From an uncultured Gammaproteobacteria bacterium (lineage in GTDB: Bacteria > Pseudomonadota > Gammaproteobacteria > UBA9214): a DNA stretch of 64,000 bases. Numbering within the stretch: position 1 is the first letter of the stretch; each line of letters starts with the position of its first letter. Below, in pieces: positions 19,943 to 55,365 of this stretch. Position numbers and translations under genes: made by a program. The stretch lies in NCBI GenBank assembly GCA_963824045.1, contig CAWGNW010000019.1, positions 73,108 to 137,107 on the forward strand, written 5' to 3'. Under the pieces are notes generated by a model. It was not told where the DNA came from and ran no database searches. It saw only the letters and a program-made list of their open reading frames with translations.

Positions 19943-19967
19943 TGAATTAATTCTGGACACCTGAATA

Positions 19968-26557: not shown

Positions 26558-26585
26558 AAAAAAAGAACCCCGCCGTGCGGGGTTC
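26558..26585 (-). terminator. rho-independent terminator downstream of the cold-shock gene
   Basis: The minus strand reads GAACCCCGCACGGCGGGGTTC followed by TTTTTTT. Confidence 0.85.
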
Positions 26586-26612
26586 CTTTGCCGATTCTGG
26601 CCTGGCGGCCTG

Positions 26613-26819: not shown

Positions 26820-27082
26820 GTGAATTACCTTTGAAAAATGGACACCTGATCAATCGCGGACCCCGGTAAAGGTAAATTGCAGGAGATACCAGTGGCAGTG
26901 CTTCTGAGTAGACCTAAAGGAGGTGCAATCAATCTGTAACTCGGGCGGTGCTTGGCAACACGCTGTTGTTTTAAGGGCTTGCCGTCCGATGTCGCCAAGA
27001 GTATCCGTCACGCTGGTGAATGGCAAGCTGTTTCTGGCCGTATCTGCGGGCTTGCCGGTGGTCTGGACAGGGCAACCGTCAC

Positions 27083-39124: not shown

Positions 39125-39721
39125 ATGCTGAACCTCACTGAAATGTGCAAGCTGCTGCTGCCGGTGATCATGCCGGGCGTGCTGTTTGCTGCGGAAGTCG
39201 AGCGCAGCGCAGACGCGGAGACCGGGCTGCGCAAGTGGCACCTTGTGGAGGGTAAGCTGGAGGTTGAACTGGTGCAGCGTCTGCCTGACCAGACAAGGGG
39301 TTTCTTCATGGCGCGCGGGTTTCCCGCTGCTGTTGCCGAAGAGATCGCCGCCAGCTGCATCTTTCAGACGGTCATCCGCAACATCGGCAGTCAGGCTGAT
39401 GGCGTCACGGTCAGCGTCGATCTGGCGCAGTGGCGCGTCCTCCACGCAGGCGGGGAACAGGGTGTCAGGCTCAAGGAGCCATGGATTGCATCCTGGCCGG
39501 AGAGCGCGGTCGGTGAGGCATCCCGCCTGGCGTTTCAATGGGCGCTGTTTCCGACGCGGCAGGAGTTCCTGGCTGATGACTATAACTGGGGCATGACCGC
39601 TTTCGGTTTGCCGCCGGGAGCGGTTTTCGATCTTGATCTCGCCTGGCAGGAGGACGGGAAGGCGAACACCGCACGAATAACCGCAATTGAATGTACACCG
39701 GACGTGGAGCGTCTGCAGTGA
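39125..39721 (+). CDS. hypothetical exported protein
   Basis: ATG at 39125 with a hydrophobic N-terminus. Its stop overlaps the next start (GTGATGA). Confidence 0.55.
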   Translation: MLNLTEMCKLLLPVIMPGVLFAAEVERSADAETGLRKWHLVEGKLEVELVQRLPDQTRGFFMARGFPAAVAEEIAASCIFQTVIRNIGSQADGVTVSVDLAQWRVLHAGGEQGVRLKEPWIASWPESAVGEASRLAFQWALFPTRQEFLADDYNWGMTAFGLPPGAVFDLDLAWQEDGKANTARITAIECTPDVERLQ

Positions 39722-40239
39722 TGAAACTGGCTGCGCGATTGCTGCTGTGCTGCCTGTTGCTGCCGGTCGCCGGCAGCCTGACGCAGGCGGGTCAGAGCCT
39801 GACGCCGCTCCCGGGTGCCGTGCCGGCACCTGACTTTGCGCTGCCGGATACGGAAGGCCGGCTGCACCGCCTGTCGGATTATCGTGGCAAGACGGTCATT
39901 GTCAACTTCTGGGCTACCTGGTGCCCGCCCTGCCGGGAAGAGATCCCGTCCATGAACCGCGCCTGGCAACAGCTGCGGCAGGAAGATGTGGTTATGCTGG
40001 CGATCAACATGGGCGAGGACGAGGACACGATCTTCGTGTTCACTGCGGATTACCCGGCGGAGTTTCCGCTGCTGCTGGATCGCGATGGCGCGGTGACTGC
40101 CCAATGGCCGGTGAAGGGACTGCCAACGACCTACGTTGTCGCCCCGGACGGCAGTATTGCGTATCGCGCCATCGGTGGTCGTGCCTGGGATGACAGTGAA
40201 ATCCTTGATACCCTGCGGGCGCTGCAGAGACAGCGCTAG
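39721..40239 (+). CDS. TlpA-family periplasmic thiol:disulfide oxidoreductase
   Basis: Signal peptide plus the thioredoxin motif NFWATWCPPCREEIP. Confidence 0.85.
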   Translation: MKLAARLLLCCLLLPVAGSLTQAGQSLTPLPGAVPAPDFALPDTEGRLHRLSDYRGKTVIVNFWATWCPPCREEIPSMNRAWQQLRQEDVVMLAINMGEDEDTIFVFTADYPAEFPLLLDRDGAVTAQWPVKGLPTTYVVAPDGSIAYRAIGGRAWDDSEILDTLRALQRQR

Positions 40240-40390: not shown

Positions 40391-41890
40391 CTAGCGCGGC
40401 AGCAGATTCTCCACCCAGCTCTCGCTGGCGAGACGGGTCAGTTCCAGCACGCCGTTCGGGAACAGTCCGCCCGCCAGTATCAGTGTTCCCAGCACCAGCA
40501 TGATCGCGAGTTCGCGCCTGCGCAGGTCGACGGCCTCGATCACGGCCGTGTTATGCATGGGCCCGAGGAAGGCGCGGCGAAACATGCCAAGGAACCAGGC
40601 GGCGCCCAGAATTATGCCGGCCAGGGCCGCAAGCCCCGCGCCGGTGTGGGTGTCCAGCGCGCTCAGGATCAGCAGAAACTCGGCCGGAAAACCGCTGGTC
40701 CCCGGGACCCCCATGCCGGCGAGCCCGAACAGGAAAAAGCCGGCGGAGAGCAGTGGCATCCGCTGCGCCACACCGCCGAGACTGACGACGTCTGTCGAGC
40801 CCACGCGGTGATGCAGGAAACCGGACAGCAGGAAAATTCCGCCGGCCACGATGGTGAAATTCAGCAGCTGGAACAACGCCCCCTGGATACCCTGCAGGGT
40901 GAAGGCGGAGATACCCAGCAGCACCAGCCCGACATGGCTCAGACTCGAAAAGGCCAGCATGCGGCGCAGGTTGGTCTGGCTGAGCGCCATCAGGGCGCCA
41001 TAGAGGATACCGACAACGCCCAGGCCGGCAAGCAGCCAGTGGAATTCCTGCGCCGCGGCGGGCGCCAGCGGCACCGTGAAACGGATCAGGCCGTACGCGC
41101 CCAGCTTCAGGCCGGTCATGATGGCCGCGATGGCAGCGGGTCCCTCCATCGCGACCGTCGGCAGCCAGGTATGCAACGGGAATACCGGGGCCTTGACGGC
41201 AAAGCCGAGCAGCAGGAGGAAAAAAACGGCAGTCTGCAGTTCCGCGGGCAGGGGGGCGGCAAGCAGTTCCGGATAGGAGAATACCAGCGTGTCTGTCATG
41301 GCCCCGCCGCTTGTGCCGGCGTGGTTGAAGCCCAGCAGCAGGAAGCCAAACAGCAGCGGCACGCCGCCGGTCAGCATCATCAGGGTGTACTTGACCGCGG
41401 CATAGCGGCGGTGCGGTCCGATTCCCCAGAGGCTGATCAGGAAAAAGGTCGGGACCAGCGTCAGCTCCCAGAACAGGAAGAACAGGATGGTGTCCAGCGC
41501 ACAGAAGATGCCCAGCGTTGCGCTTTCCAGAATCAGCAGCAGGCTGAAGTAGAGCCGCGGCAGGGAGCGCACGCTGGTCCACGAGGCGAGGATGACACCG
41601 ATGAACAGCAGCACGGTCAGCGGCAGAAACAGCACGGACATGCCGTCCACGCCGATCAGGTACTTGATGTTCAGGGAGGGAATCCAGGTATGCTGCTCGA
41701 CAAACTGGAAGTCGCCGGATGCATGGTCGAAGCGGACCACGATCAGCAGCGTGAATGCCAGGTCGAGCAGCGCCGTCAGCAGGGCAATCCAGCGAGCCCG
41801 GGCCGGATTCGGCGCCAGCCAGATCAGCCCGGCCCCGAGCGGCAGGGTCATGATCACCAGGCTCAGCAGCGGATATCCGGGTTCAGGCAT
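40391..41890 (-). CDS. complex I subunit M/MrpD-like antiporter-type membrane protein (fifth gene of the DAB-like operon)
   Basis: 499 aa, polytopic, with a PF00361-type pattern (...FFLFWELTLVPTFFLI..., ...VKAPVFPLHTWLP...). Confidence 0.8.
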   Translation of the reverse strand: MPEPGYPLLSLVIMTLPLGAGLIWLAPNPARARWIALLTALLDLAFTLLIVVRFDHASGDFQFVEQHTWIPSLNIKYLIGVDGMSVLFLPLTVLLFIGVILASWTSVRSLPRLYFSLLLILESATLGIFCALDTILFFLFWELTLVPTFFLISLWGIGPHRRYAAVKYTLMMLTGGVPLLFGFLLLGFNHAGTSGGAMTDTLVFSYPELLAAPLPAELQTAVFFLLLLGFAVKAPVFPLHTWLPTVAMEGPAAIAAIMTGLKLGAYGLIRFTVPLAPAAAQEFHWLLAGLGVVGILYGALMALSQTNLRRMLAFSSLSHVGLVLLGISAFTLQGIQGALFQLLNFTIVAGGIFLLSGFLHHRVGSTDVVSLGGVAQRMPLLSAGFFLFGLAGMGVPGTSGFPAEFLLILSALDTHTGAGLAALAGIILGAAWFLGMFRRAFLGPMHNTAVIEAVDLRRRELAIMLVLGTLILAGGLFPNGVLELTRLASESWVENLLPR

Positions 41891-41911
41891 AAGCCGTTTC
41901 CATTCCTGTCA

Positions 41912-43459
41912 TCATTGCGCGGCAGCGGGTATGCCGCCGTTATGCAGCGTGCCGGCGTACAACTCCGCCAGCCCGTCAAAGGAATGCCCCAGCAGGGCAA
42001 GCCAGGGCTGTGAGTAGAAGCCTGTTCCCAGCAGGACCAGTATGATCAGCCCCGCGATGACGCGTTCCCTGCGCGTCGGTGGTTCGATTTCAATAGCGGA
42101 CTCGCTCTCCGGTCGTGGCGCCAGGAAAGCCCGCTGGAAGGCCCGCAGCAGGAAGGCGGCTGCAGCGACGTTGCCGAGGGCCGCGGCAATGGTGACCATG
42201 GCGCCGAATTCCTGGATTGCGGCTTCCAGCACCAGGTGCACGGCGTCGAAGCCGGGCGTACCCGGCATGCCGATGATGGACAGTCCCGCCACCAGAAACG
42301 CGGTTCCGATGACAGGAAGATGCCCAAACAGCCCGCCGAGGCGCGGCATGATGAGGGTGCGTGTGCGACGGTATACGAAGCCCGACATGAACAGCAGCCC
42401 CGCAGTGGCGGTGCCGAAGCTGGTGGACAGCAGGATGCTGCCCTGCAGCGCGGTCTGGCTGAGGCTGAACAGGCCGATCACCAGCAGGCTGGTATGGCTG
42501 ATGACGGCAAAGGCCAGCAGCCGCCGCAGGTTGTCCTGCATCAGCGCCAGTGTCGCCGCATAAAAAATTCCGGCAAGGGCAAAGGCCGCTACCCAGACAT
42601 GCCAGCGCAAGATCGCCTCCGGCAGCAGCGGAAACACGAAGCGTACCAGCGCATACACGCCGGTCTTCAGCCCCAGCAGAAAGACGCCGGCCACGGCTAC
42701 GGTCCCGTGCTCAGCAACCAGGGGCAGCCAGCCGTGCAGGGGAAACAGCGGAATGCGAATCCCCAGACCGTAGAACAGCAGGAAAAAGATCACGCTCTGG
42801 ATTTCCAGCGGCACGGCCTGCTGCGTCAGCTCATGCAGGTCAAAACTCCATTGCCCGCCGCTGGCATTGGCGTAGTTCCAGCCCAGCATGAAGGTGCCGG
42901 CCAGCAGCAGCAACAGGCCGATGCCCATGAACTGCAGGTAGCGCCGCATGGCTGATTCATCCTGCGGGGCCTTGGCCAGGCGCAGCAACAGGTAGGCGAT
43001 CAGGCCGAGTTCCACGGCAGACAGCAGGGTAAACCACAGCAGGTCCCGGGTCACGAACATGCCCTGCAGCGTGGCCTGGATGGCGAATGCCGGGGCCAGG
43101 AAGGCGCGGGAATTCTCCAGCCGCTTCACCTTTGCGTACAGTACAACCAGCAGCGATATTATCGCCGTCAACAGTATGAACAGCACGCTCATGCCGTCCA
43201 CGGCGGCGTGGTAATCCGGAAAGAACAGCAGCGGCAGGCGTTCGGCGAGCTGCAGGGAACTGCTCGTGGCATCGAACAACCGGAACAGGTCGCCGGCAAG
43301 CAGGAGTTCCAGCAGCGCCATCCCGACGGCAGCAGGATATAGCAGTCGCCTGCCACGCAACAGCAGCAGCACGACGACCGCCGCCAGCGGCAGCAGCTGC
43401 AGGGTGGCCAGTACCGGGTAGGCTGACTGTACCGTCCAGTGAATCTCGTTCATGCCCAT
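41912..43459 (-). CDS. complex I subunit M/N-like antiporter-type membrane protein (fourth gene)
   Basis: 515 aa, polytopic. ...GIRIPLFPLHGWLP... 1-nt gap to the upstream gene. Confidence 0.8.
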   Translation of the reverse strand: MGMNEIHWTVQSAYPVLATLQLLPLAAVVVLLLLRGRRLLYPAAVGMALLELLLAGDLFRLFDATSSSLQLAERLPLLFFPDYHAAVDGMSVLFILLTAIISLLVVLYAKVKRLENSRAFLAPAFAIQATLQGMFVTRDLLWFTLLSAVELGLIAYLLLRLAKAPQDESAMRRYLQFMGIGLLLLLAGTFMLGWNYANASGGQWSFDLHELTQQAVPLEIQSVIFFLLFYGLGIRIPLFPLHGWLPLVAEHGTVAVAGVFLLGLKTGVYALVRFVFPLLPEAILRWHVWVAAFALAGIFYAATLALMQDNLRRLLAFAVISHTSLLVIGLFSLSQTALQGSILLSTSFGTATAGLLFMSGFVYRRTRTLIMPRLGGLFGHLPVIGTAFLVAGLSIIGMPGTPGFDAVHLVLEAAIQEFGAMVTIAAALGNVAAAAFLLRAFQRAFLAPRPESESAIEIEPPTRRERVIAGLIILVLLGTGFYSQPWLALLGHSFDGLAELYAGTLHNGGIPAAAQ

Positions 43460-43460
43460 G

Positions 43461-45032
43461 TCACAGGATCACGATAAAGGTGATGACGATGAGCAGGATC
43501 AGGTAGCGGGGCTCGCTCAGCAGCACATCGATCCTGGCCAGAACCGCGCCGAGCCGTTGCACCAGGGTGAAAATCCCGACATCGCCGCCTTGCAGCACCA
43601 GGTGTTCCTCGAACCAGTGCAGCAGGGCGGCGACCGTTTCCAGCAGGTGGCCGATGGCCCCGCGGCCATGGCCGATATCGCCGCTGTCGCCGACCACCCG
43701 GCCGGTCCGCCCGTGGTGGAAGGCTTCCCACTGTGCCAGCGAGGATACCGCGCTGGCCGAGCCCGGCAGGCCTACCAGCCGGTTCACCACCTGCTGATCA
43801 AATGCCTCTATGTCCTGCGCCAGCTGACGGGTCGGCCGGACCAGCAGCCAGTCCGCCAGGTTGTCCAGCCAGAAGCGTTGCAGTGCCGCGGTATACAGCC
43901 ACTTGCGGTGTTGCAGCCAGCCGGGTACAGGACGTGACGGACTGCCTTCCGTCAGATGCATCAGCGCGGGGGCGCTGAGAAACTGGTAGGCGCGCCATGC
44001 GGCGTGTGCCGCCAGGTGCCAGGCCGCGAATGTGAACCAGCCCAGACCGCAGGCCAGGAACATCAGGCCGGTTTGACCGATGGTTGCGAATATCAGGGCG
44101 CTCTTGACGTCCGTCTGCACCAGGCCGGCAAGAAATCCGTACAGTGCCGTGGCACCGCCAAGCAGCACCAGGGTCAGCATCAGCACCGGGATCTGCTGCA
44201 GCAGCGGTTCCAGTCTTATGACCAGGTAGACCCCGGCATGCACCATGAGGGCGCCGTAGAACACCGCACTGGAAGGGGTCGGTCCCTCCAGTGCCCGGGT
44301 TATCCACGGGGTGAAGGGAAGCTGCGCCGATTTGACCAGTGCCGCGAGCAGGAAGCTCGCCGCGATCAGTCCGACCTGCAGCATTTCCAGGTCATTGCCG
44401 CGGGCGAGGATGTCCGGCCATTCCACGCTGTGTATCCAGAACAGGGACAGCGACAGCGCGGTGATGAAGCCCGCGTCACCGATACGGTTGGTGACGAAGG
44501 CGCGGCCGGCATTCACGCCTGCCACCGGGCGATCCAGTGCAAACGCGATCAGCAGGCAGGAACTGACACCGGCCAGTTCCCAGCCAATGAAGGTAAGCAT
44601 GGCATTGCCGGCCAGCACGATCAGCAGCATGGCGGACATGAACAGGCACAGCAGCATGAAGAACCGCTGGAAGCCGGCTTCGCGATGCAGGTAATTGACC
44701 GAAAATCGCAGTGTCAGCAGGGAAATCAGCGCCACCAGCGTGGCAAGCGACAGCCCCAGTGCATCCAGGTTGAACGACAGCCGTATGACATAGTCACCGC
44801 TGTGCAGCCAGATGCCATGGCTGACCTGGCCGGGTACCCCCTGCTGCAGGGCGAGTACGTCGATCGCCAGCAGCAACAGCAGCGCCAGTGCCGCGGCGCT
44901 ACTGGCAAGTCCGGCGGTGAAACCTTCCCCGGACTCACCCCGGTTCCGGCCGGAAATGTACCCGAGGCCGATGCCGGCAGCCGCCAGCAGCGGCAGCGCG
45001 GGGATCAGCCAGGCGAGGCTAGTCATGGTCAC
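43461..45032 (-). CDS. dabB: NuoL/MrpA-like membrane subunit, DabB-type partner of DabA
   Basis: 523 aa. The NuoL-type N-terminus is ...LTFIGWELAGVSSCLLIAF...AFVTNRIGDAGF... Its start overlaps the DabA stop by 14 nt. Confidence 0.8.
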   Translation of the reverse strand: MTMTSLAWLIPALPLLAAAGIGLGYISGRNRGESGEGFTAGLASSAAALALLLLLAIDVLALQQGVPGQVSHGIWLHSGDYVIRLSFNLDALGLSLATLVALISLLTLRFSVNYLHREAGFQRFFMLLCLFMSAMLLIVLAGNAMLTFIGWELAGVSSCLLIAFALDRPVAGVNAGRAFVTNRIGDAGFITALSLSLFWIHSVEWPDILARGNDLEMLQVGLIAASFLLAALVKSAQLPFTPWITRALEGPTPSSAVFYGALMVHAGVYLVIRLEPLLQQIPVLMLTLVLLGGATALYGFLAGLVQTDVKSALIFATIGQTGLMFLACGLGWFTFAAWHLAAHAAWRAYQFLSAPALMHLTEGSPSRPVPGWLQHRKWLYTAALQRFWLDNLADWLLVRPTRQLAQDIEAFDQQVVNRLVGLPGSASAVSSLAQWEAFHHGRTGRVVGDSGDIGHGRGAIGHLLETVAALLHWFEEHLVLQGGDVGIFTLVQRLGAVLARIDVLLSEPRYLILLIVITFIVIL

Positions 45033-48000
45033 CCCCGGTTTCGATCAGGGCAGGCGACAACGGCCCCGTGTGTCCCCGGTACCAGTCGGATGAGCGGTTC
45101 ACCACGGGCAGCGCGGAGAGCTCGCCCTGCCAGGGGATGAAACCGCTGCCCGGCCTGAAGACATGAATGGCCGCACTGCGCGGGTCCCTGGCTGCCAGCA
45201 GCACCCAGCCGTTACCGATGAGTTCCTGCAGCGGCGGCTGACGTTCGTAGATCCGGGTGAGGACCCCGGTGCTGGCTTCGACCACGAGCTGCAGGCGCAT
45301 CGCCTCGTGGATCTCGATCATCTGCTTCGGCAGTCCCGTGCGCAGATCGGAGCCGGTGCCTTCCATGACGCCGAACAGACCCGTGACATTGTGGGTGATC
45401 TTGGTGCCGCAGCCATACTGCTCGTTGTTAACCGTGGAAAAGTAGTACTCCAGGCTGATGCCGGCACCGACCGGGCCGACGGCCAGCAGGATCTGCTCCA
45501 GGACTTCACCTTCCGGGTCCTCGGCAGGGTCGTAGGAAATCAGGAACATGCGGCGGTCGAGGAAAGCGCCCCGGGTTACGGAGCGCCGGCCGATGAGGGC
45601 GGCGGCATTGTTGGCATGACCCAGCTCCGGGCGTGCCTGGCTGAAGTCGAAGGCGCGGCCGATGATGTGGCGCAGGGCGCGTTGTGGTGTCGGGTTTGCG
45701 GGCGCGGACGCCAGCCGCCGCGCGCGCTCCTGTGCCGAGCCGGACATGGCGCTATCGAGATCCCGGCGTAGCTGCGCCAGGGCAGGTGCCTGCGACTGCG
45801 GCAGGGCTGCCGCGTCGTACCAGGTGATGGCTTCGTCGCAGGTATTGTGTTCCGCGCCAAGGAACCAGGTGTCGGACGGGATCTCGCAGCCGCGCGCCTT
45901 CAGCGCGGCGCGGACTTCCGGCCGGTTGGCCATGGCGGCGAAAACCCGCGCGTTCGGTCCGCCGTGGCGGCCGCTGCAGGCGCCGCAGTCATAGGCCGCC
46001 AGGTGCGGGTTGTTCTGGCTGCGGGAACCATGCCCCATGATCACCACCAGTGGCGCGAAGCCGGACAGCAGGCCAATGCTGCGCAGGAAACCGTGCACCT
46101 GCTCGACCTGTTCGGCCCCGGTGAAGCCGAGGCGGGGATGTTCCGGCGTGGCCGGGGTGTCGTCCTTGCTGGTAAGTGTCAGGCAGGTCGGGATTTCGGT
46201 TTCATAGCTGCGGCGCAGCCTTTCCGCCAGCCGACCCATTTGCAGGGGCGCCAGCACCTTCGCAACCAGTACCGCCAGTGTTGCCGGTGCCGCCAGCAGG
46301 ATCAGCAGGCCGGAGGCCAGCAGGTTGCGCCGGGTTTCCTGGTGCAGCAGGCCTTTCACGGCGAGGCGCCTGCGGCGCCGCGCGCTGTGCCGTGTGGCAG
46401 GCGCCGTCTGCCCGGGAGCGGCCTGCTCGCGGATTTCGTGGGACGGGGTCACCACGACCGGGCACAGCGGAGTCACCTCGCGGTCGTCCAGGCCGCGCCA
46501 GAAGATCGGTACCCCGAAGAAGCCGGCGGCGCCCAGGGTTTCGATCCGCGGATTGTGTTCTTCCAGGTGCCGGCGAAAGGCTTCCTCTCGGTCATCCATG
46601 CAGAACACCACCTGGGTCTCCGGGCGGCTGCTGCGGGTCTCCCAGCGCCCGCGCCCCTGGTTATTTACCAGGGCATTGAACAGCTGGTCGCGATAGTGGT
46701 TTTCATAGGCCTGCAGCCAGAGGAAACCCGATCGCTCCGCGTCAAGCTGGTCGAGACAGGCGAATACCCGGTGCTGGGTGGCACGATCCTGGCCGCGCAG
46801 GTCTGCACCGCACAGGCCCAGGTGCTGCGCCAGGCGAAACAGTCGCCAGCCGTGGTCATAGACGCTGAAGCCGCCGGGGCCGTGGCTGGTGACGCTGTGG
46901 TGCCAGGTGATGATCATGTGGGCGAGGTGCAGCCATTGCGCCGGGTCACTGCCGCACAGGCTGGAACAGTTGAGCAGGCGCTGGGCGAGGGTCACCAGGT
47001 ACTCCGGCAGGTGCCGGTTGTACACCATGTAGCGCACCAGGAACTCGGCGTGGTTGTGACGAAAGAACCAGCGTATGACGTCAAGGCTTGCCTCGATCAT
47101 CCACAGGCGGCGGCACAGGCGCTGCGCGAACAGGTGTTCCAGCACCAGGCGTACCGCCAGGTAGTCCGCCATGTCGACCCGTATCCGGTCGAGCCCGGCA
47201 TAGCCCGGGTGCCGTTGCCGCCACAGGAACATTCCCGACCAGCCGGGCAGTTCCAGCGCCAGGCGTTCCAGGTAGGCTTCCCATTGTTCCGCGGGCAGGC
47301 CCAGCCACTGGAGCTCGATGACGATGGTGTCCAGCGGGTCGTCCGGCAGGGCGCCGATGTCGTCCTGCCAGTCGGGTAAATCGTCGAACACCCAGGCCAG
47401 GTCCTGCATGGCGCTCTCTCGCCAGACGCTGTAAAAGCCGCGCTGCCGCTGCGGTGAAGTCCAGGCCGCAACCCCCTGGTCCAGGAAGGCACCGACATGG
47501 CGGATGAGCAGCGGTCGCATCGCGTCCATCAGGTCTTCGCCGGTCACCACCCGGAGCAGACCGGCCAGGGTCAGTTGTCCCCCGGTCTGCGTGAACAATT
47601 CATCCAGCAGGGTCCCCGCCTCGCGGTCGACCAGACGGTCCATCAGCAGCTGGCCGGTCCCGCTGTCTTCTTTTTCCGCAATGACCTGTGACAACAGCGC
47701 TTCGGCCTTTTCCGGAGGCAGGTCCAGCATTTCCTCCGGATGCAGCAGGTAGTGATCCAGTCCCAGCGCCTGCAGGCAGGCGGTCCACAGGTCGTTGATT
47801 GCGCCCGGCTCGTCGGGCTGTCCCTGTTGCCGTGCGGACTGCAGCAGCCGGGCACGACTGGCCGCGTCCACGTCCGGCTGGAACGCAGTCAGGGCAGCGC
47901 CTTCCTCGATCTGCCAGTTCAGCTGGCAGCCGGTTACCGTTCCGATCGGGTGCAGCAGCGCGGTCAGCTGGACATTGCGCCGCGTTATGGCCGTGCCGGC

Positions 48001-48318
48001 CGCGGTGGTGAACAGGACTTCCCCGGCCTGCAGGGCAGGGTCGGCGTCGAGGACCTGTTCGAGATCCGCCTGCGTAACACGTCCGTTGCGGTAGCAGTCG
48101 CGGAATTCTTCCGCCGGCAGGTAGCCGTAGGCACCGGTCACCCGGTGTGCCTGCGCGACGGCCTCGGGAAACGGCAGGTGCTGGAATCCGTGCAGGGTGT
48201 TGTGGTGTACGAAATCGCGGATAGCGGCCTGCCCGGGCAGGACGTGCTCAAAGTGTGCGATCGCCGCCCGCAGGCGCGCGTGCCTGTCCGGTAACGCTGA
48301 CTGCTGTGTGTCCGCCAT
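45019..48318 (-). CDS. dabA: DUF2309/DabA-family inorganic carbon transporter subunit (beta-carbonic-anhydrase-like)
   Basis: 1099 aa. The N-terminal ...IRDFVHHNTLHGFQHLPF... is family-typical. Putative Zn ligands lie in VVFCMDDREE and MGHGSRSQNNPHLAAYDCGACSG. Confidence 0.85.
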   Translation of the reverse strand: MADTQQSALPDRHARLRAAIAHFEHVLPGQAAIRDFVHHNTLHGFQHLPFPEAVAQAHRVTGAYGYLPAEEFRDCYRNGRVTQADLEQVLDADPALQAGEVLFTTAAGTAITRRNVQLTALLHPIGTVTGCQLNWQIEEGAALTAFQPDVDAASRARLLQSARQQGQPDEPGAINDLWTACLQALGLDHYLLHPEEMLDLPPEKAEALLSQVIAEKEDSGTGQLLMDRLVDREAGTLLDELFTQTGGQLTLAGLLRVVTGEDLMDAMRPLLIRHVGAFLDQGVAAWTSPQRQRGFYSVWRESAMQDLAWVFDDLPDWQDDIGALPDDPLDTIVIELQWLGLPAEQWEAYLERLALELPGWSGMFLWRQRHPGYAGLDRIRVDMADYLAVRLVLEHLFAQRLCRRLWMIEASLDVIRWFFRHNHAEFLVRYMVYNRHLPEYLVTLAQRLLNCSSLCGSDPAQWLHLAHMIITWHHSVTSHGPGGFSVYDHGWRLFRLAQHLGLCGADLRGQDRATQHRVFACLDQLDAERSGFLWLQAYENHYRDQLFNALVNNQGRGRWETRSSRPETQVVFCMDDREEAFRRHLEEHNPRIETLGAAGFFGVPIFWRGLDDREVTPLCPVVVTPSHEIREQAAPGQTAPATRHSARRRRRLAVKGLLHQETRRNLLASGLLILLAAPATLAVLVAKVLAPLQMGRLAERLRRSYETEIPTCLTLTSKDDTPATPEHPRLGFTGAEQVEQVHGFLRSIGLLSGFAPLVVIMGHGSRSQNNPHLAAYDCGACSGRHGGPNARVFAAMANRPEVRAALKARGCEIPSDTWFLGAEHNTCDEAITWYDAAALPQSQAPALAQLRRDLDSAMSGSAQERARRLASAPANPTPQRALRHIIGRAFDFSQARPELGHANNAAALIGRRSVTRGAFLDRRMFLISYDPAEDPEGEVLEQILLAVGPVGAGISLEYYFSTVNNEQYGCGTKITHNVTGLFGVMEGTGSDLRTGLPKQMIEIHEAMRLQLVVEASTGVLTRIYERQPPLQELIGNGWVLLAARDPRSAAIHVFRPGSGFIPWQGELSALPVVNRSSDWYRGHTGPLSPALIETGGDHD

Positions 48319-48323
48319 GCAGG

Positions 48324-49796
48324 TCAGCTCCCGGGGATGCCGCCGAGGGCGGTGCTCAACCGCGTGATGGAAACCGCCATCAGGTCAAGCACCGGCCGCG
48401 GAATGATACCCAGCAGCACGATCCCGGCGGCGAGCACGCCCGCTGCCGTCAGTTCCAGCGGCTGCAGATCCTGGATATCGCGCATGCGGCTGTGCACCGG
48501 ACCGGTAAACAGCCGGCCGATGGTGCGCACCGAGTAGGCTGCCGTAATCAGCATGCCGATGCTCACCAGCAGGATAAGCCAGCCCCAGACCTCGTAGGTG
48601 CCGATGATCGTATGCAGTTCCGCGATGAAGCCTGCCGTACCCGGAATGGCCATACCCGCAAGCAGCGCCAGCGAAGTGAAGAAGGCGAAGCGCGGCGTGA
48701 CCTGCATCAGCGAACTGTAGTCATTCACGTCGCGCGTATGGGTGCGTTCGTAAAGCAGTCCGATCAGCAGGAACAGGGCGCCTGCAACCAGACCATGCGC
48801 CAGCATTTGCATCAGTGCCCCGGTGAGACCGGCGATGTTGAGCGTTGCGATTCCCAGCAACACGATCCCCATGTGGCTGATCGAGGAATACGCGATCATT
48901 GCCTTCAGATCGGTCTGGCGCCAGGCCAGCATACCGCCGTAGATCAGGCTGAACAGGGCCAGTCCGGCAAGCAGCGGCTGCAGCGCCTGGATGGCCTCCG
49001 GCAGCAGGGTGGAGGCACGAATCAGCCCGTAGCAACCCATTTTCAGCAGGATGCCGGAGAGCAGTATGGAGATCGGGCTGGGTGCCTCGACATGCGCCAG
49101 TGGCAGCCAGCCATGCAGCGGGAAAACGGGCATCTTCACGCCGAAACCCAGCAGAAAACCGAGAAACAGCATCACCTGGGTTTGTGCCGGCAGTGACCGG
49201 GCGCCGCTCGCCATGGAGGCCATGGCGAAGGAGTGTCCGGGCGTGAGATCAAAAAGCACCAGCAGGCTGATCAGCATGAATACCGAACCGCCCATCGTGT
49301 AGAGCACGAAATTCAGCGCTGCCTGGTGGCGCCGCCGTCCGCCCCAGCCGCCGATGAGAAAGAACAGTGGTATCAGGGTCAGTTCCCAGAGCAGGTAGAA
49401 CAGGGTCCAGTCCTGGGCCATGAACACGCCGAGCATGGCGGTTTCCAGCAGCAGTACCAGGGTGAAATACCATTTGACGCGGTCGCGCATGCCGGCCGAG
49501 GCAAGAATCGCGATGAAGCACAACAGGGTAGCCAGCAGGACCAGCGGAAAGGAAATACCGTCGATGCCGAGGGAGAAGGATGTACCCAGGTGGGGATTCC
49601 ACGGGGTCTCCTCGACGAATTGCAATGCCGCGGTGCCAGTGTCAAAGAGGGTCAGCAATCCCCACGAATAGCACAGGGCTGCCGCGGCGGCGCACAGGGC
49701 GATCGTGCGTATGGCGCGCGTGAGATGTGCAGGCAGCAGCGCGATCACGAGGGCGCCGACCGCAGGCAGCAGCAATAGCGATGTCAGCAGGTGCAT
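48324..49796 (-). CDS. complex I subunit M/MrpD-like antiporter-type membrane protein (first gene of the DAB-like operon)
   Basis: 490 aa, polytopic. ...LFYLLWELTLIPLFFLI..., ...VKMPVFPLHGWLP... 5-nt gap to dabA. Confidence 0.8.
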   Translation of the reverse strand: MHLLTSLLLLPAVGALVIALLPAHLTRAIRTIALCAAAAALCYSWGLLTLFDTGTAALQFVEETPWNPHLGTSFSLGIDGISFPLVLLATLLCFIAILASAGMRDRVKWYFTLVLLLETAMLGVFMAQDWTLFYLLWELTLIPLFFLIGGWGGRRRHQAALNFVLYTMGGSVFMLISLLVLFDLTPGHSFAMASMASGARSLPAQTQVMLFLGFLLGFGVKMPVFPLHGWLPLAHVEAPSPISILLSGILLKMGCYGLIRASTLLPEAIQALQPLLAGLALFSLIYGGMLAWRQTDLKAMIAYSSISHMGIVLLGIATLNIAGLTGALMQMLAHGLVAGALFLLIGLLYERTHTRDVNDYSSLMQVTPRFAFFTSLALLAGMAIPGTAGFIAELHTIIGTYEVWGWLILLVSIGMLITAAYSVRTIGRLFTGPVHSRMRDIQDLQPLELTAAGVLAAGIVLLGIIPRPVLDLMAVSITRLSTALGGIPGS

Positions 49797-49976
49797 GGCA
49801 TGCCTTCATTACCACCCGGGTAAGGAAACGGGTACTACCCGGGCTGGAGGGGCGCTGCGGATACAGCCAGGCCGCCCGGCAGGGGGTCACGATTCAAACG
49901 GGAAAAATAGCATAGCTGTGGCGGAGAGTCATCCGCAGTACGGATTCGCTGCACGGCACCCGCGGCCGGGACTTCC

Positions 49977-52900
49977 CTATGGCGACAGCAGCATCCGGAT
50001 GAGCAGGGTGATGTCCCGGGCATCGATGATGCCGTCAGGCGTGCCGAGGTCGCAGTGCGCCAGTTCCAGCGCCCGCGTGGATTCCAGTCCGAGTGCCAGG
50101 CGTATCGCGACCGTCAGGTCGCCCGCGTTGAGCTGGCCATCCGGAGTGCCGTAGGGTGCCACGTCGCCGTCTGCCAGGTTCGGCCAGCTGGCCGGGTCTT
50201 TGGGGTCGGAACCGTTTGCCACTTCCAGTCCGTCCGGCAGCAGGTCGCCGTCGCTGTCGCTCTGCGTCGGGTCGGTCGCGTAGGTGTTCACCTCCTCACC
50301 GTCATCCAGACCGTCGCCGTCGGTGTCGCTCACCCCGGGGTTGGTCCCCGTGTGTGTCGGGTCGAGGAAAATGCCCGTGTTGGTTTCCACACCGTTCGGC
50401 AGTCCGTCGTTGTCGGTGTCGGCGCAATCGGGGTCGTTGCTGTCGATCAGGGTGTCGCAGTCGTTGTCAATGTTGTCAGCGCAGGACAGTTCCGGGGTTT
50501 CGCCCGGCACGCAGACCTGGCAGTCGGGATCGGCTGCATCGGGGAGTCCGTCGCAGTCGTTGTCCTGGCCATCGCTGCAGCTGACTTCCGCAGCCGGCTC
50601 GGTCGGTGTGCAGACGGTCGGGTCACAATCGTTTGCACAACTGGTGATGGTTTCCGCACCCTCGCAGAGCTTGTCTCCGCAGCAGGCCGACATCCGCGGG
50701 GAATCGGACTTCCGGCAGAACCGGGCGGCACTGGAGTCGATACAGCGGTTGTCGCTCACGTCGATGCCGCAGTCGATGTTGTTGGTGCCGCCGGGCGCGC
50801 CGCAGCAGAACATCTTGGCTGCCGCACCGCTCTGCTTGCCGGCGCAGTCTGCCGGACAGGTCAGGCAGTTCTCGCCGTCACCGCCTTCACACAGGCCGTT
50901 GCCGCACGCCGCGCCGCTGACCTGGGCGCAATCGGACGGGCAGCTCTTGCAGTCCTCGCCCGGATCGCAGGTGTGATTGCCGTCATCACACGTAGATACC
51001 GGGGGGTTGACTGTCTGGAACTGCCGCATCATTTCGTGATCCTCGTGGTCGAGGAGGTGGCAATGCTGCGGGAAACGGCCGAGGTAGTCCTCGAAGTCCA
51101 TGATGATGCGGGCCTTCGTGTTGGCCGGGATGCGCACGATGTCCTTCCAGGTATCCGCTTCCCACGGTTCCAGCGGGATCGGCTGGCCCGTGGTCATATC
51201 GGTCTTGCCGAGGATCTGGAAGCGCACCAGGTGCACGTGCATCGGATGCATGGAGTTGGTCGGGTTCTCGAACTCCCAGATCTCGCGGGTGCCGAGGACC
51301 GGGAACTCGTACAGGTCGTCCCAGTGTTCCGCCATCACCTGGCCACCCGGACCAGTGAGTGACTGGACCAACCACTCGTTGACGGTGCGGCCCGGGTCGT
51401 TGGAGCAGGGTGCAGTCACCTTGGCCAGGCGGAAGTAGCGGGTGCCGTCCGCCGAGCTTTCCGGCATGGCGGGTACGTCGCGCAGCGTTGGCGACAGGTT
51501 CCCGGTGTAACCGGTCTGGCCGGTTACGATGAACTTCATGATGCTGGGCAGCAGCGGCGGGGTCTGCTCGTCGTTGCGCAGGATGATCTCGGTGCCTGCC
51601 GGAAAACCGGAAAAATCTATCACGACATCCATGCGCTCGGCCGGCGCCTGCAGGCCACCGAATGCCTTGCCCAGGTTAATCGGTGCGCCGAGCAGTCCAA
51701 GGTCGGTGCCGACCAGGATGAAGTCCGGGTCGTTACCCGGGTCGGTGATGTTCTCCAGCCGCAGCTTGTACTGGCGCGACTGCGAGCCGTTCAGCAGGCG
51801 GAAGCGGTACTTGCCCTGGTCGACATTGAGGTACGGCGATATTTTGCCGTTGACGACCGCGTAGTCACCCTTGAAGGCATCCTCCAGCTGGGCGTTGTAG
51901 AACAGCGAGCCGTCCGCGTTGAAGGAACGGTCCTGGATTGCCATGCCGATCTCGTACTGGCCGCTGGGCAGGCCGAAGGCATTGCCCGGACCCAGTGTGT
52001 CCTCGCTGTCGGCGATCAGGTAGAAGCCGGCCATGCCGCCGTAGACGTTAAGGCGGGTAATACCCAGCGCGTGGTCGTGGTACCAGAGCGTGGCGGCATC
52101 CTGATTGTTGGGATATTCGTAGACGTCGGTCTCGCCCGGCAGTATGTGGTACTCGGGCTGGCCGTCGACCCGGGACGGCACGTGGCCGCCGTGCAGGTGG
52201 GTCACGATGCGCTTGGACTTGCCCCAGTTGTTGGGTCCGTGTGAGCAGGTATCCACCTCCAGGAGGTTACTGCCGCGGCTGCCGCCACCGGTAGGGAGAT
52301 TATTGACGTAGGTGACCTCGATCGGCTGCCCCTTGACGGCGACGAAGGTCGATGCCGGCCAGGCGCCGTTGTAGGTCCAGACCGTGGTATCCGGCAGGCC
52401 CGGGTGGACGCTCTGGGTGGTTTGCTGGACCGAGACCGTGTACTGCGGCACACCGTCGGCACGGGTACCGGTCGGCTGCAGGATGGCCGGTATCGGCAGC
52501 GGCTCCACGAACGGTGCCAGGCCGCAGTCGGCCTGGTTGCAGTTGCCGCCGACAAAGGTGCCGCCGGCCCCTTCACAGACCAGCTTGTCGATACTGCCGG
52601 AACAGCTGTTGTCGGCATTGCAGCAGGCGCCGGACGGCTGCGGACACTGGTTCGGATCGCAGGTGCTGACACCGGTCAGGGTGGTGCCACCGCAGGTGCC
52701 CGAGCCCACCACGGTCAGCGAGCAGTCGCCGCTGGATTCACAGCAGGCCTCAACGGCGCCGGTCGGGGTGAAATCGACAAGCAGGGATGGGGGACTGCCG
52801 CCCTCGCGGCTGTCGAAGCGGCGGGTCGAGGTCGGGATAGTCTCGTCACCGATCAGGATCCAGCCGTTGTTGGTGGCGGGGTTGTCCAGCCAGCCCTGCA

Positions 52901-53420
52901 CGTCACCGGCCATGCTTGCCGAGCTCCAGCCAGGTGATGTGTTGTTGATCAGCGTGCTGCCGCTGGCCGCGCCGAAGCCGGGCATGGTGTTCCAGGTGGT
53001 GCCGCCGCCGGCTGTAGGCGCACCCTGGCCGCCGCCGCGTGTGCCACAGCCGGCCGTCCCTTCGACCCAGGCGGAGGTAACGGGGTGCAGGGTGAAGATC
53101 GAATCCACATGATTGCTGCCGCGGGTCACGGTCATGCTGAGCGTGACGCTGTTGATGACCGAGCCGGGCGGGATGGTGGACAGGTCGAATCGCATCAGGG
53201 CACGTCTGGCAGAACCGACGCCGTTATCGGTGTTGCCGGCAAAGAGCGAGTCGCAGGCGCCGGAACTGTTGTCCGGGAAATCCTGGGCCAGGGTTGTGTC
53301 GGCGGCGGGTGTGATGGTTGCTGTTGCCGACCAGCCTGTTGTGGCGGTAAAGGCCAGCAGCATGGCGGCCACGAAGCCGCCTAGCTGCGACGGGTGTTTA
53401 GCCGTCTTCTGCTGTGGCAT
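49977..53420 (-). CDS. secreted multidomain multicopper oxidase (CotA/bilirubin-oxidase-like core with N- and C-terminal extensions)
   Basis: Signal peptide. Copper motifs HLHGGH, WYHDHA, HPMHVHLV and HCHLLDHEDHEMM are present. Also Cys-rich linkers, Asp-rich thrombospondin-type-3-like repeats (DTDNDGLPNG, SDTDGDGLDDGEE, SDSDGDLLPDG) and a dockerin-like tail. Confidence 0.85.
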   Translation of the reverse strand: MPQQKTAKHPSQLGGFVAAMLLAFTATTGWSATATITPAADTTLAQDFPDNSSGACDSLFAGNTDNGVGSARRALMRFDLSTIPPGSVINSVTLSMTVTRGSNHVDSIFTLHPVTSAWVEGTAGCGTRGGGQGAPTAGGGTTWNTMPGFGAASGSTLINNTSPGWSSASMAGDVQGWLDNPATNNGWILIGDETIPTSTRRFDSREGGSPPSLLVDFTPTGAVEACCESSGDCSLTVVGSGTCGGTTLTGVSTCDPNQCPQPSGACCNADNSCSGSIDKLVCEGAGGTFVGGNCNQADCGLAPFVEPLPIPAILQPTGTRADGVPQYTVSVQQTTQSVHPGLPDTTVWTYNGAWPASTFVAVKGQPIEVTYVNNLPTGGGSRGSNLLEVDTCSHGPNNWGKSKRIVTHLHGGHVPSRVDGQPEYHILPGETDVYEYPNNQDAATLWYHDHALGITRLNVYGGMAGFYLIADSEDTLGPGNAFGLPSGQYEIGMAIQDRSFNADGSLFYNAQLEDAFKGDYAVVNGKISPYLNVDQGKYRFRLLNGSQSRQYKLRLENITDPGNDPDFILVGTDLGLLGAPINLGKAFGGLQAPAERMDVVIDFSGFPAGTEIILRNDEQTPPLLPSIMKFIVTGQTGYTGNLSPTLRDVPAMPESSADGTRYFRLAKVTAPCSNDPGRTVNEWLVQSLTGPGGQVMAEHWDDLYEFPVLGTREIWEFENPTNSMHPMHVHLVRFQILGKTDMTTGQPIPLEPWEADTWKDIVRIPANTKARIIMDFEDYLGRFPQHCHLLDHEDHEMMRQFQTVNPPVSTCDDGNHTCDPGEDCKSCPSDCAQVSGAACGNGLCEGGDGENCLTCPADCAGKQSGAAAKMFCCGAPGGTNNIDCGIDVSDNRCIDSSAARFCRKSDSPRMSACCGDKLCEGAETITSCANDCDPTVCTPTEPAAEVSCSDGQDNDCDGLPDAADPDCQVCVPGETPELSCADNIDNDCDTLIDSNDPDCADTDNDGLPNGVETNTGIFLDPTHTGTNPGVSDTDGDGLDDGEEVNTYATDPTQSDSDGDLLPDGLEVANGSDPKDPASWPNLADGDVAPYGTPDGQLNAGDLTVAIRLALGLESTRALELAHCDLGTPDGIIDARDITLLIRMLLSP

Positions 53421-53738
53421 GATTTCACATCCCCGATGTCGTTATTGTTCACCGGAACGCGTTCTGCCCGGTTCATTGTGTGTTCTTTGGGAACCAGTCT
53501 TGACCACGATTTAGACTTTGTCAAGATTCCGGCCGGTGCGGGCAGGCGCAGGGGCATGTGGTTTGTATGGGCTGCGCTGGCCGGATAGCCTCCGCCTGGC
53601 AGCGTGTCCCGTTATTGCGGGTGTCGCGGCTGGCATGGAGAAGATCAGACCGCAAGGCGGTCGAGAGACTGGCCTGGGCCACGCCGGGAGCGATTGCGAA
53701 GTAATCTTTCTTGGGTGACCGGCAGGCCGATGGTAGCG

Positions 53739-54506
53739 TTATACCCGCAACGTGCCGCTAAGTATTTGCTTCTGCAGCAGGCCGCTCAGGATTTCAGTGC
53801 CGCCCTTGAGGACGACGTCCGGTTGCGGGTGTGACATCTCGGTCGCAATGCATGTCAGCAGTTCGATTCCGGTCAGCTTCGCGCCGGTATCGATGAGTTC
53901 CAGCAGTCGCCTGGTCACGCTGTTGATCTCGAGGAAACCCAGTTCATCTTCCCGGTCGCGATACACGACCAGGCAGGTCGGCATGTCGCCCGGCTGTGTC
54001 GGCCGGTAGTCCGGCCCGATCCTGTGAACCGGGTAGCGGTAGGCCAGGTGCCAGGCCAGTGGAGACAGTACGGGGATGCCGTTTAGCAGGTCGCCGTGAG
54101 GGTCCACGGCCCTCGGGTCGGCAGGAGACTCGGCAATCGCCAGCGCCAGTTCGACCCATTCGTAGTGGGCCAGTTCAAACAGGAATGGCGGGTCAGCAGG
54201 ATTGCCGGCGTACTCGCTTTCCAGCCAGCTGAGGAATTCCCGGGGGATTTCGTGGAACAGCGGTGTCCGGGATCTGTGCCGGGAAAAATACTCGCGCACC
54301 AGGGTATGCCATGCCGTGTCATTATAGATCTGCCGCAGCACAGGAAAGGCCCCGCTGATAAAGCCTTCAACGTTGTTGTAGAACAACTCCCGGTAGATCT
54401 GCATGCGCCGGTCTTCGATGTCCTCCGGTGCGGGATTGTTTTCCGGGTCGCGTATATTCGCCGCAAAGGCGTGCTGCCTGCGGGTGAATTCAGGCATGGA
54501 TGCCAT
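53739..54506 (-). CDS. hvfC: DUF2063-family partner protein of the MNIO enzyme (HvfC-like)
   Basis: [21 protein letters not shown]...[25 protein letters not shown]... is typical of DUF2063. It overlaps the hvfB stop (alternative ATG at 54497). Confidence 0.8.
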
Positions 54507-55365
54507 GTGCGATGTCCTCTCTGTCCTGCGGGCCGCGCCACTTCGCCTGCAGTGCGGCAATCTGTCCGACTTCCGCCAGCAGTTCCGGCAGCGGCGGGAT
54601 GTTGAAGTCGCGCTCCAGCAGCGTCGGGACCACGCCGAAATGCGCATAGGCCGTTTCCAGCAGCGACCACACCGGATCGATGACCGGCGCGCCGTGTGTG
54701 TCGATCTTCAGGTCTTCGGCTTCGTCATAATGGCCGGCGATGTGGAAGTAGACGACGCGTTCAGCCGGCAGTGCCTTGAGGAAGGCATCTGCATCGTAAC
54801 GGTGATTGATGCTGTTCACGTAGATATTGTTGACATCCAGCAGCAGGTCGCAGTCGCCCTCGGTGAGCACCGCGTTGATGAAGTCGATCTCTTCCAGTTC
54901 CTTGCCCGGTGCCGCGTAGTAGGAAACATTCTCCATCGCGATGCGCCGTTCCAGTATATCCTGCACGCGGCGGATGCGGCCGGCGACATAATGCACCGCC
55001 TCTTCGGTGAACGGTATCGGCATCAGGTCATACAGGTGGCCGTCGTCGCTGCAGTAGCTGAGGTGTTCGGTGTAGCAGCGAAACTGGTGTTCATCAAGCA
55101 GGCGCTTGAGTCGGTACAGAAAGGTTTCATCCAGCGGCGCGGGGCTGCCGATCGAAAGTGACAGGCCGTGGGCTGCAAAGGGATAACGTTCGGTGAAATG
55201 GCGCAACTGCCTGGCGAGGCTGCCGCCGATGCCGATCCAGTTTTCCGGGGCAAGCTCGAAAAAATCGACAGTCTCCGGCGGGTTGTCCCGCAGCGGACCC
55301 ATCAGGGTCCGCCGCAGTCCAAGCCCTGTGCCTGACAACGGATAATTGCTGGCGGACAGGGACAT
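54490..55365 (-). CDS. hvfB: DUF692/MNIO (multinuclear non-heme iron) family RiPP-modifying enzyme (HvfB/MbnB-like)
   Basis: GLGLRR...FFELAPENW...HGLSLSIGS...TEHLSY...MENVSYY...[12 protein letters not shown]...FHIAGH are DUF692 hallmarks. Confidence 0.88.

Follow-up and report, generated by a model that had tools for sequence, protein, structure and literature searches.

The window analysed here is a 64,000-nt stretch of contig CAWGNW010000019.1 (assembly GCA_963824045.1) from an uncultured Gammaproteobacteria bacterium. On its minus strand, at 40391–49796, five tightly packed open reading frames (ORFs) are arranged in the order M1-DabA-DabB-M2-M3, where DabA and DabB are the subunits of a DAB-type inorganic-carbon pump and M1, M2 and M3 are additional antiporter-like membrane proteins. 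We consider it probable, at roughly 60%, that the five genes encode one redox-independent DAB-type assembly resembling the membrane arm of complex I, in which ion influx via several channels drives one-way CO2 hydration. That the five subunits form a complex, with what stoichiometry and to what function, is what we infer from the features listed below and from their conservation in other genomes.

48324–49796, minus strand: M1, first gene, 490 aa, canonical NuoM/ND4-class antiporter-like subunit
45019–48318, minus strand: DabA, 1099 aa, long form, beta-carbonic-anhydrase-like cytoplasmic subunit
45985–46602, minus strand: DabA active-site codons (C573 at 46600–46602, D575 at 46594–46596, H763 at 46030–46032, C778 at 45985–45987)
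46201–46407, minus strand: DabA helical hairpin (residues 638–706), with AlphaFold helices at 638–664, 666–689 and 691–706
43461–45032, minus strand: DabB, 523 aa from GTG, NuoL/NdhF-class, transmembrane helices (TM) 1–11 only
43467–43937, minus strand: DabB C-terminal module (residues 366–522), where TM12–15 are replaced by a lateral-helix-like segment, a Gly-rich linker, more helices and a single TM anchor
41912–43459, minus strand: M2, 515 aa, remodelled NuoM-class subunit
40391–41890, minus strand: M3, last gene, 499 aa, canonical NuoM-class subunit

The first-pass annotation had given the five minus-strand genes with their coordinates, 5 nt apart at the first junction, overlapping by 14 nt at the second, and 1 nt and 21 nt apart at the third and fourth; all of these values were reproduced exactly by the ORF check. 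The dabA/dabB overlap becomes 8 nt instead of 14 nt when DabB begins at the ATG at 45026, two codons past the GTG at 45032. The closest database homologues of DabB are 521 aa long, a length that fits the ATG, and the shorter overlap is preferred because one of these proteins is 99% identical to the window DabB; by this comparison DabB is probably a 521-aa protein starting at 45026 and overlapping dabA by 8 nt. A redoxin gene at 39691–40239 on the plus strand lies 3' of M3, and since it is convergent the operon ends at M3.

DabA matched PF10070 over the full model (positions 1–747) with 836.7 bits against a gathering score of 25. This bore out its initial naming as a DUF2309/DabA protein, and the motifs quoted for it were located at residues 33 (IRDFVHHNTLHGFQ), 572 (FCMDDRE), 762 (GHGS) and 777 (DCGACSG). 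The sole PDB sequence match was DabA2 of H. neapolitanus (9rd0_A, E 1.3e-72), with a good alignment restricted to residues 529–1043, while the DabA homologues at 54–87% identity were all approximately 1090–1140 aa in length. C573, D575, H763 and C778, which had been proposed as zinc ligands, aligned with DabA2 C351, D353, H524 and C539, and conservation analysis revealed that these four residues and R577 were invariant across 18 DabA homologues in the same identity range; the ligand assignment was thus upheld. In DabA2, the Ala mutant of each of the four residues fails to rescue E. coli devoid of carbonic anhydrase (CA) (10.1101/476713).

Residues 664–695 of DabA are strongly hydrophobic (Kyte-Doolittle 2.45), whereas the equivalent regions were weakly hydrophobic in one DabA of the DAB1 type and in one of the two-gene type. 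Judging from the AlphaFold model, the predicted hairpin at 638–706 corresponds to the 'elbow/finger' of DAB1 and DAB2, a membrane-inserting motif that has been described as entering DabB in the cryo-EM structures of both systems (10.64898/2026.05.01.722082; 10.64898/2026.03.13.711513). The window DabA scored 374 bits against a DabA of the two-gene type and 241 bits against DabA1, and the placement of the five-gene clade as a branch of DAB1 was rejected on these scores.

The third gene, initially read as the NuoL-like partner DabB, was confirmed as such by its matches to PF00662 and PF00361, the latter limited to model positions 1–224 of 294, with NuoL models scoring best. Against PDB sequences DabB reached 195 bits with NdhF1, approximately 150 with NuoL, 118 with DabB2 and 92 with NdhF3. 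A neighbour-joining tree of the membrane subunits (52 taxa, 482 columns, 100 bootstraps) placed DabB in one group with NuoL and further DabB proteins (92% bootstrap). The structural model of DabB (predicted local distance difference test score, pLDDT, 81; predicted template modelling score, pTM, 0.75) superposed on NuoL/ND5/NdhF over approximately 360 columns at about 2 Å. Residues were mapped in E. coli numbering, which was checked against the actual sequences, and DabB E152, D186, K234, D308, H339, H343 and R347 corresponded to NuoL E144, D178, K229, D303, H334, H338 and K342. Thus DabB keeps the NuoL-type charge pair of TM5/TM7 and the His/His/Arg motif of TM11. Among 71 DabB orthologues, D186, K234, D308, H343 and R347 were each conserved in all 71, E152 in 70 and H339 in 61.

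The region of the TM12 Lys is absent from DabB. In the window protein no hydrophobic segment could be detected between approximately 341 and 487, and the C-terminal anchor lies at 504–522; across the 71 orthologues the hydrophobic-free gap after TM11 had a median of 182 residues. The cores of TM12–15 are retained by DabB1 of Nitrobacter hamburgensis and by one two-gene DabB, unlike the 71 DabB proteins of the five-gene type. When the profile of the C-terminal region was compared with the whole PDB, the sole match was the lateral-helix region of NdhF1 (559–622, E 0.0019), and a matching FDxLY motif occurs in E. coli NuoL at 541–545, between TM15 and TM16. The model places C-terminal helices at 371–384, 387–420, 459–480, 483–505 and 508–522, and these approximately 100 helical residues would in principle be long enough to span two or three neighbouring subunits.

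M1, M2 and M3 all matched PF00361 in Pfam (M1 at 235 bits), and their scores to TIGR01972 (NDH_I_M, cut-off 263.8 bits) were 492.5, 282.6 and 447.8 bits, respectively, the value of M2 being just above the cut-off. In the tree the three groups joined E. coli NuoM, and not NuoN or NuoL, with 96% bootstrap, and the scores against PDB sequences pointed the same way. They had been introduced as PF00361-type subunits of NuoM/NuoN/MrpD-like character; the family membership stood, while the likeness to NuoN and MrpD gave way to a NuoM-class assignment for all three. M1, M2, M3 and the DabB of the five-gene type were each monophyletic at 99–100% bootstrap (M1 100%, M3 99%), and M2 was the sister of M3 (87%) on a long branch. 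The best PDB sequence matches of M1 were plant ND4 (322 bits), P. denitrificans NuoM (309 bits) and NdhD1 (295 bits), compared with 273 bits for NdhD3, approximately 106 for Mrp subunits and 78–88 for NuoN.

M1 carries the full channel set of E. coli NuoM (E144, K234, K265, H322, H348 and E407) as E138, K221, K252, H308, H334 and E393, and these six residues were invariant in 77 orthologues. M3 keeps E142, K233, K262, H319 and E404, invariant in 59 orthologues, and has Phe at the position of NuoM H348. In M2 the canonical TM5 Glu is replaced by A/T/V/L, with E/Q/H two residues on (E150), and the TM7 Lys by Arg (R235, 68/68 orthologues); K265 and H322 are retained, and the TM12 Glu is replaced by A/V, while D405, H408 and E412 (spaced i, i+3, i+7 on TM12) were kept in 64–67 of 68 orthologues. 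A reading of M2 as a 'dead' scaffold was dropped when a gap-free local alignment gave the conserved replacements E150, R235, D405, H408 and E412. By its conserved residues, M2 is remodelled, not inert. The operon does encode four antiporter-like modules, as had been stated, but they are not equivalent: M1 and M3 are canonical, M2 is remodelled and DabB is devoid of TM12–15. The alignments show purifying selection on the catalytic and the channel residues.

These proteins can be compared with the two DAB systems of known structure. DAB2 of H. neapolitanus (DabA2-DabB2; PDB 9rd0/9rd8/9rd9) shares with the window a PF10070 DabA with the same four residues and an adjoining NuoL-like DabB, and it has been proposed to couple CO2 hydration to motive force (cation gradient or membrane potential) without a redox module (10.64898/2026.03.13.711513). 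It is, however, a heterodimer without NuoM-like partners, whereas the window operon has five genes, and DabA2 has 827 aa compared with 1099 aa in the window. For DabB2, 15 TM helices and a short axial helix were reported, in contrast to TM1–11 and a long non-TM region in the window DabB, and key ion-pair motifs were described as missing from it, whereas the window DabB keeps E152, D186 and K234 (10.64898/2026.03.13.711513).

DAB1 (DabA1-DabB1-DabC; Thermocrinis albus, H. neapolitanus, N. hamburgensis), for which the plasmid operon L086 of N. hamburgensis served as comparator, resembles the window in its long DabA (1037–1046 aa in DAB1). The cryo-EM structure of T. albus DAB1 has DabC next to DabB, at the place taken by NuoM in complex I, and DAB1 does not function without DabC (10.64898/2026.05.01.722082). 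DabC and M2 are both encoded directly after dabB, and M2 has lost canonical NuoM residues. DAB1 has a small DabC of approximately 250 aa where the window has three full-length NuoM-class proteins, two of them canonical; the gene order is B-C-A-PII in N. hamburgensis compared with M1-A-B-M2-M3 in the window; and DabB1 keeps TM12–15 and has TM5 Glu replaced by F and TM7 Lys by R, whereas the window DabB keeps both charges and is devoid of TM12–15. No DabC-like small ORF was present in the window, and the DabC of L086 had no Pfam match. M2 as an ancestor or homologue of DabC found no sequence support, since DabC scored at most 17.8 bits to the hidden Markov models of the M1, M2 and M3 families (to the C-terminal part of M3, not to M2) with hhalign probabilities of 13–35%. 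Only an analogy of position and function is retained between M2 and DabC.

The close resemblance of M1 to genuine NuoM/ND4/NdhD1, together with a DabB that scores higher to NdhF1/NuoL than to DabB2 and keeps a lateral-helix-like segment, would also suit docking on the complex I of the host. DabB and the M proteins would then replace NuoL/M(/N) on a core of NuoA/H/J/K and the quinone (Q) module, DabA would act like CupA, and electron transfer, not motive force, would drive hydration; the cyanobacterial NDH-1MS operates so, as outlined for PDB 6tjv. NDH-1MS and NDH-1MS' (NdhF3/NdhD3/CupA/CupS) share with the window, in that outline, a Zn-dependent CO2-hydrating subunit on a pair of L-type and M-type subunits and the concept of a vectorial CA, whereas they are driven by electron transfer via a full NDH-1 core and the window operon encodes no core subunits. 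Docking is very unlikely on several grounds. The operon encodes no subunit of the NuoN/NdhB class, all three extra proteins being M-class, and DabB is devoid of TM12–15. Genes of the NdhC/A/G/E-type membrane core, of the Q-module and of the N-type (NuoN/NdhB) were not found among the scanned ORFs adjoining the operon, and nuo genes were not conserved beside it in 66 related loci. The characterised DAB1 and DAB2 are self-sufficient and need no dedicated redox partner to function in E. coli. By Pfam assignment DabA and CupA are unrelated. The sequences also differ in that NdhF3 and NdhD3 gave 92 bits against the window DabB and 273 bits against M1. The parallel with NDH-1MS is conceptual only; no redox module is encoded in the operon.

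Conservation of the five genes as a unit argues for the single five-subunit assembly. A scan with one genome per species yielded at least 592 DabA-bearing stretches, the best 80 of which all had the long-form DabA, and 83 related loci were tallied. The order M1-DabA-DabB-M2-M3 was complete and canonical in 59 of the 83; a further 17 ended at a contig edge yet were consistent with it, four had split ORFs, one was a seven-gene variant (L031) and two were exceptions (L083 and L042). The identical five-gene order was found at 87%, 58% and 56% DabA identity with unrelated flanks. Gene order across lineages shows a fixed module, not a local oddity, and each position in it is occupied by its own orthologous group in varied contexts; the assumption that the three extra subunits belong with DabA and DabB was borne out accordingly. 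Hosts included gammaproteobacterial sulfur oxidisers and symbionts (Thiodiazotropha, Sedimenticola, a Solemya symbiont, Thiothrix, Thiohalophilus), methanotrophs (Methylobacter, Methylomicrobium lacus, Crenothrix), Betaproteobacteria (Nitrosospira sp. NpAV, Nitrosomonas, Thiobacillus, Sulfuricella) and Magnetococcales. Among 126 plasmids with a DabA homologue in the plasmid collection, none covered at least 80% of the long form, and the five-gene type was not found there.

Several loci depart from the common layout. The seven-gene variant (L031:8481–23165) occurs in a metagenome-assembled genome (MAG) of Thiothrix sp. (NZ_JAQTLS010000002) with the order M1-DabA-DabB-DabA'-DabB'-M2-M3; its second DabA is approximately 42–44% identical to the first copy and to the window DabA, and its two DabB proteins are 65% identical. 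Its products may assemble into one complex that has two catalytic heads, or they may be alternative isoforms. In a MAG of Candidatus Sedimenticola endophacoides, a 1027-aa ORF (L024:5378–8461) joins DabB (1–369) and M2 (523–1027) in frame, and is either a natural fusion, which would support contact between DabB and M2, or an assembly error of the MAG; all other oversized ORFs considered as fusions were artefacts of start-codon over-extension. On the chromosome of Methylomicrobium lacus (NZ_CP169217), a divergent two-gene DAB (L069:3271–7790) lies directly 5' of the five-gene operon in opposite orientation; its DabA has 871 aa, and its DabB is longer and keeps the C-terminal TM helices, so both DAB forms occur in one organism. 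A contig labelled as a Candidatus Bathyarchaeota MAG (L022, JAIVTC010000400) carries M1-DabA-DabB at 54–64% identity to the proteobacterial proteins, and is probably a mis-binned bacterial contig, not an archaeal occurrence.

The shared operon could also house two separate, co-regulated systems: an ordinary DAB made of DabA and DabB, and an independent cation or proton transporter made of M1, M2 and M3, for example for the pH or Na+ balance of the proton released by CO2 hydration. Two-subunit DABs suffice elsewhere, M1 lies on the opposite side of DabA from M2 and M3, and passages of PMC3464577 and PMC11496545 indicate that isolated antiporter-like subunits can conduct ions. This arrangement is nevertheless unlikely. 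DabB is not ordinary, as without TM12–15 it looks incomplete alone; conservation of the gene set is strict, and neighbouring genes overlap or lie only a few nucleotides apart; and DabB and M2 are fused in frame in L024. M2 is highly conserved despite the loss of canonical channel residues, as would be expected for an interface or relay subunit, and DAB1 has an essential partner at the NuoM position beside DabB.

Some neighbours of the operon recur in part of the loci. A SulP/STAS transporter gene occurred beside the operon in 12 loci, directly upstream and co-directional in 10 of them (e.g., L047:6223–8412); in L004 the SulP/STAS gene (4935–6731) is on the opposite strand and a phosphoribulokinase gene lies just 3' of the operon. 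The SulP/STAS family includes bicarbonate transporters of the BicA type. A divergent protein of approximately 375 aa with a CMDGR...H..GC motif adjoined the operon in nine loci (L009:5783–7090, L044:17898–19190, L002:18056–19201 and six others) and gave weak matches to the Pfam families LCIB_C_CA and CsoSCA_cat (24–25 bits); it may be an undescribed beta-CA-like partner. This LCIB/CsoSCA-like protein is absent from the window. A CitMHS-family transporter neighboured the operon in seven loci. No conserved extra ORF, large or small, adjoined the operon across the 66 related loci.

A further alternative treats the system as an Na+/H+ antiporter of the Mrp type, or as a source of membrane potential, that CO2/bicarbonate would regulate or fuel; ion homeostasis would be its main output, and DabA a sensor or local proton source. 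PF00361 proteins do include the Mrp antiporters, and the altered Asp-His-Glu ladder of M2 could bind a different ion. MpsAB of S. aureus was reportedly first described as a membrane-potential-generating, Na+-linked system. Passages of PMC6689103 and PMC8552792 echo this view of MpsAB. We regard the alternative as quite unlikely, since the membrane subunits are of the NuoM/NuoL class with far lower Mrp scores, the active site of DabA is fully conserved as in proven inorganic-carbon pumps, and the recurrent neighbours are related to inorganic carbon. Neither MrpB/C/E/F/G genes nor an MrpA with its C-terminal extension could be found in the operon, the scanned flanks or the flanks of related loci. 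NuoA/H/J/K-like genes were likewise missing from the scanned ORFs adjoining the operon, where the flanking ORFs were unrelated; the first-pass annotation had already reported both groups of small subunits as absent from the operon. Compared with complex I (NuoL-NuoM-NuoN) and Mrp, the window system shares homologous chains of antiporter-like subunits with TM5 Glu, TM7 Lys, TM8 Lys and TM12 Glu/Lys, and an L-type subunit with a lateral helix and a terminal anchor. It differs in having one truncated L-type and three M-type subunits, no N-type, none of the small subunits and no redox or Q module, and its output would be that of a carbonic anhydrase.

All three alternatives are less likely than a single five-subunit complex. 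In this complex DabA would be the cytoplasmic beta-CA-like catalytic subunit, and DabB, M1, M2 and M3 would together make up a membrane arm comparable to the one in complex I. The DabA hairpin would insert into DabB, as in the solved DAB1 and DAB2, and the C-terminal helices and anchor of DabB would strap the neighbouring M subunits, as the lateral helix HL does in NuoL. Protons (or Na+) would flow in down the motive force through two or three working channels (DabB/DabA, M1 and M3), with M2 as an electrostatic relay or altered channel. The influx would be transmitted along the central charged axis and gate the buried Zn site, giving unidirectional hydration of CO2 to bicarbonate; in effect, a complex I membrane arm would run inwards, its quinone module exchanged for a carbonic anhydrase. 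If several ions were used for each CO2 (free energy = n × F × motive force), bicarbonate could accumulate at low CO2 or low motive force, which would fit hosts living on low-energy substrates.

The five-subunit assembly is supported by the fixed synteny, the orthology by position, the invariant channel residues, the tight or overlapping junctions and the DabB-M2 fusion of L024. It is supported as well by the lack of any other conserved partner gene in the related loci and by the neighbours related to inorganic carbon (SulP/STAS, the LCIB/CsoSCA-like protein and, in L004, phosphoribulokinase). Precedent is offered by the essential DabC at the NuoM position of DAB1 and by DAB2, driven by membrane potential without a redox partner.

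A number of observations weigh against it. The DabA model is mediocre (pLDDT 70, with active-site regions below 50), and a Foldseek search with it against a PDB copy, possibly without 9rd0, gave no match at E ≤ 0.001, the core of the model being of low confidence. The lateral-helix homology of DabB is marginal, with one match at E 0.0019; the second half of that region was modelled at pLDDT 40–69, and the amphipathicity of the segment, though similar to that of NuoL HL, was a weak signal of approximately 1 standard deviation above shuffles. An orphan long-form DabA occurs at L083:7998–11231 with no antiporter-like gene within 8–10 kb on either side, and at L042:8517–15176 M1-DabA is followed by 2 kb without DabB; these may be real degenerate loci or misassemblies. 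Many hosts (type I methanotrophs, Nitrosospira, Magnetococcales) are not known to have carboxysomes, so the physiological use of accumulated bicarbonate is less obvious in them. Spending several ions per CO2 also looks wasteful beside the working two-gene DABs.

A more specific form of the proposal is tentative, and we lean somewhat against it. It pictures a self-contained 'complex I membrane arm without complex I', in which the truncated DabB would be completed by helices donated by DabA and would carry an extended lateral strap, with the three NuoM paralogues in line as two canonical channels and one remodelled relay. Inward movement of approximately 3–4 ions would gate the buried CA site by long-range electrostatic coupling of the complex I type, and the DabC of DAB1 and the DABs of two subunits would have arisen by reduction of such an arm, or would be simpler relatives of it.

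With respect to the DAB family, the operon has a PF10070 DabA, the four type II beta-CA-like residues, an adjoining co-oriented NuoL-like DabB and a hydrophobic helical hairpin; it departs from the two- or three-subunit composition in its five conserved genes, with three extra full-length NuoM-class proteins. In the published functional and structural work on DABs that was searched (subscription journals lay outside the search), heterodimers or heterotrimers were described and no five-gene member had been characterised or tested. Klimchuk et al. 2017 (COGNAT, PMC5700660) described a 'clade C' with ybcC/COG3002 (DabA) upstream of a nuoL homologue, often with COG1008 (NuoM) and COG0659 (SulP) neighbours, and suggested that more than one ion is moved where an operon encodes multiple membrane subunits. 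These operons are almost certainly the same cluster type as in the window. The report was a brief comparative-genomics remark that predated the recognition of YbcC as a carbonic anhydrase, and it proposed the opposite energetics, with an exergonic reaction pumping ions out; it covered neither the order of the five genes nor the three classes of paralogue, the comparison of residues or the truncation of DabB. The expanded DAB had been flagged at the outset as unusual, and this holds in so far as no characterised member was found, but the arrangement is common and its NuoM neighbours had been reported. The five-gene form is therefore already on record (the 2017 remark on NuoM neighbours), widespread and mechanistically informative, and it is a variant within the DAB kind, not a categorically new one.

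One further feature belongs to the operon, upstream of its first gene:

49797–49976, minus strand: intergenic region 5' of M1, 180 nt, presumed promoter/leader, the sole sizeable non-coding gap on the operon strand

A regulatory role of this region is assumed. No sigma-70-like site was found in it, and neither the counts of such sites across the whole region nor those of terminator-like sites in the operon region were above chance. At 49829–49841 (minus strand), approximately 35 nt 5' of the M1 start codon, a small GC-rich hairpin precedes a stretch rich in T. The fold of the leader RNA was not unusual (z = 0.86), and the Rfam scan gave no match near the operon, including the 180-nt leader. 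The sole Rfam match of the window was a full-length cspA thermoregulator RNA at 26559–26950 on the minus strand (RF01766, 102.8 bits against a gathering score of 78).

The segment at 49977–55365 on the minus strand begins, directly 5' of the operon, with the gene of a multicopper oxidase of 1147 aa that has an N-terminal CBM96/DNRLRE domain and C-terminal TSP3 and acidic-disulfide repeats, and past it lies the gene of an HvfC-family (DUF2063) maturation protein for ribosomally synthesised and post-translationally modified peptides (RiPPs). The same stretch of the 87% relative (L001) has MbnB/TglH-like and DoxX genes as well. This copper- or RiPP-related cluster is unrelated to the DAB module in other genomes. 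Elsewhere in the window, positions 16001–24000 have a low GC content (0.47–0.53 compared with approximately 0.62 elsewhere) and encode a second CorA-like transporter, a DUF1905/OmdA protein, a RibD_C protein, a GDSL lipase and a TAT-signal protein, and the segment looks like a horizontally acquired island.

The foremost unsolved problem in research on complex I is the long-range sideways transfer of energy by antiporter-like subunits, and in the field of bacterial CO2 pumps it is the one-way running of the DAB carbonic anhydrase. If the proposal is true, an assembly of five proteins with one L-type and three M-type subunits, no redox module and a simple reaction would be a tractable system for both. 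The module could also be a candidate part for the engineering of CO2 uptake. Its hosts include symbionts that oxidise sulfur, ammonia oxidisers, methanotrophs and Magnetococcales, and it may contribute, so far unnoticed, to the acquisition of inorganic carbon by chemolithotrophs and methanotrophs of global importance.

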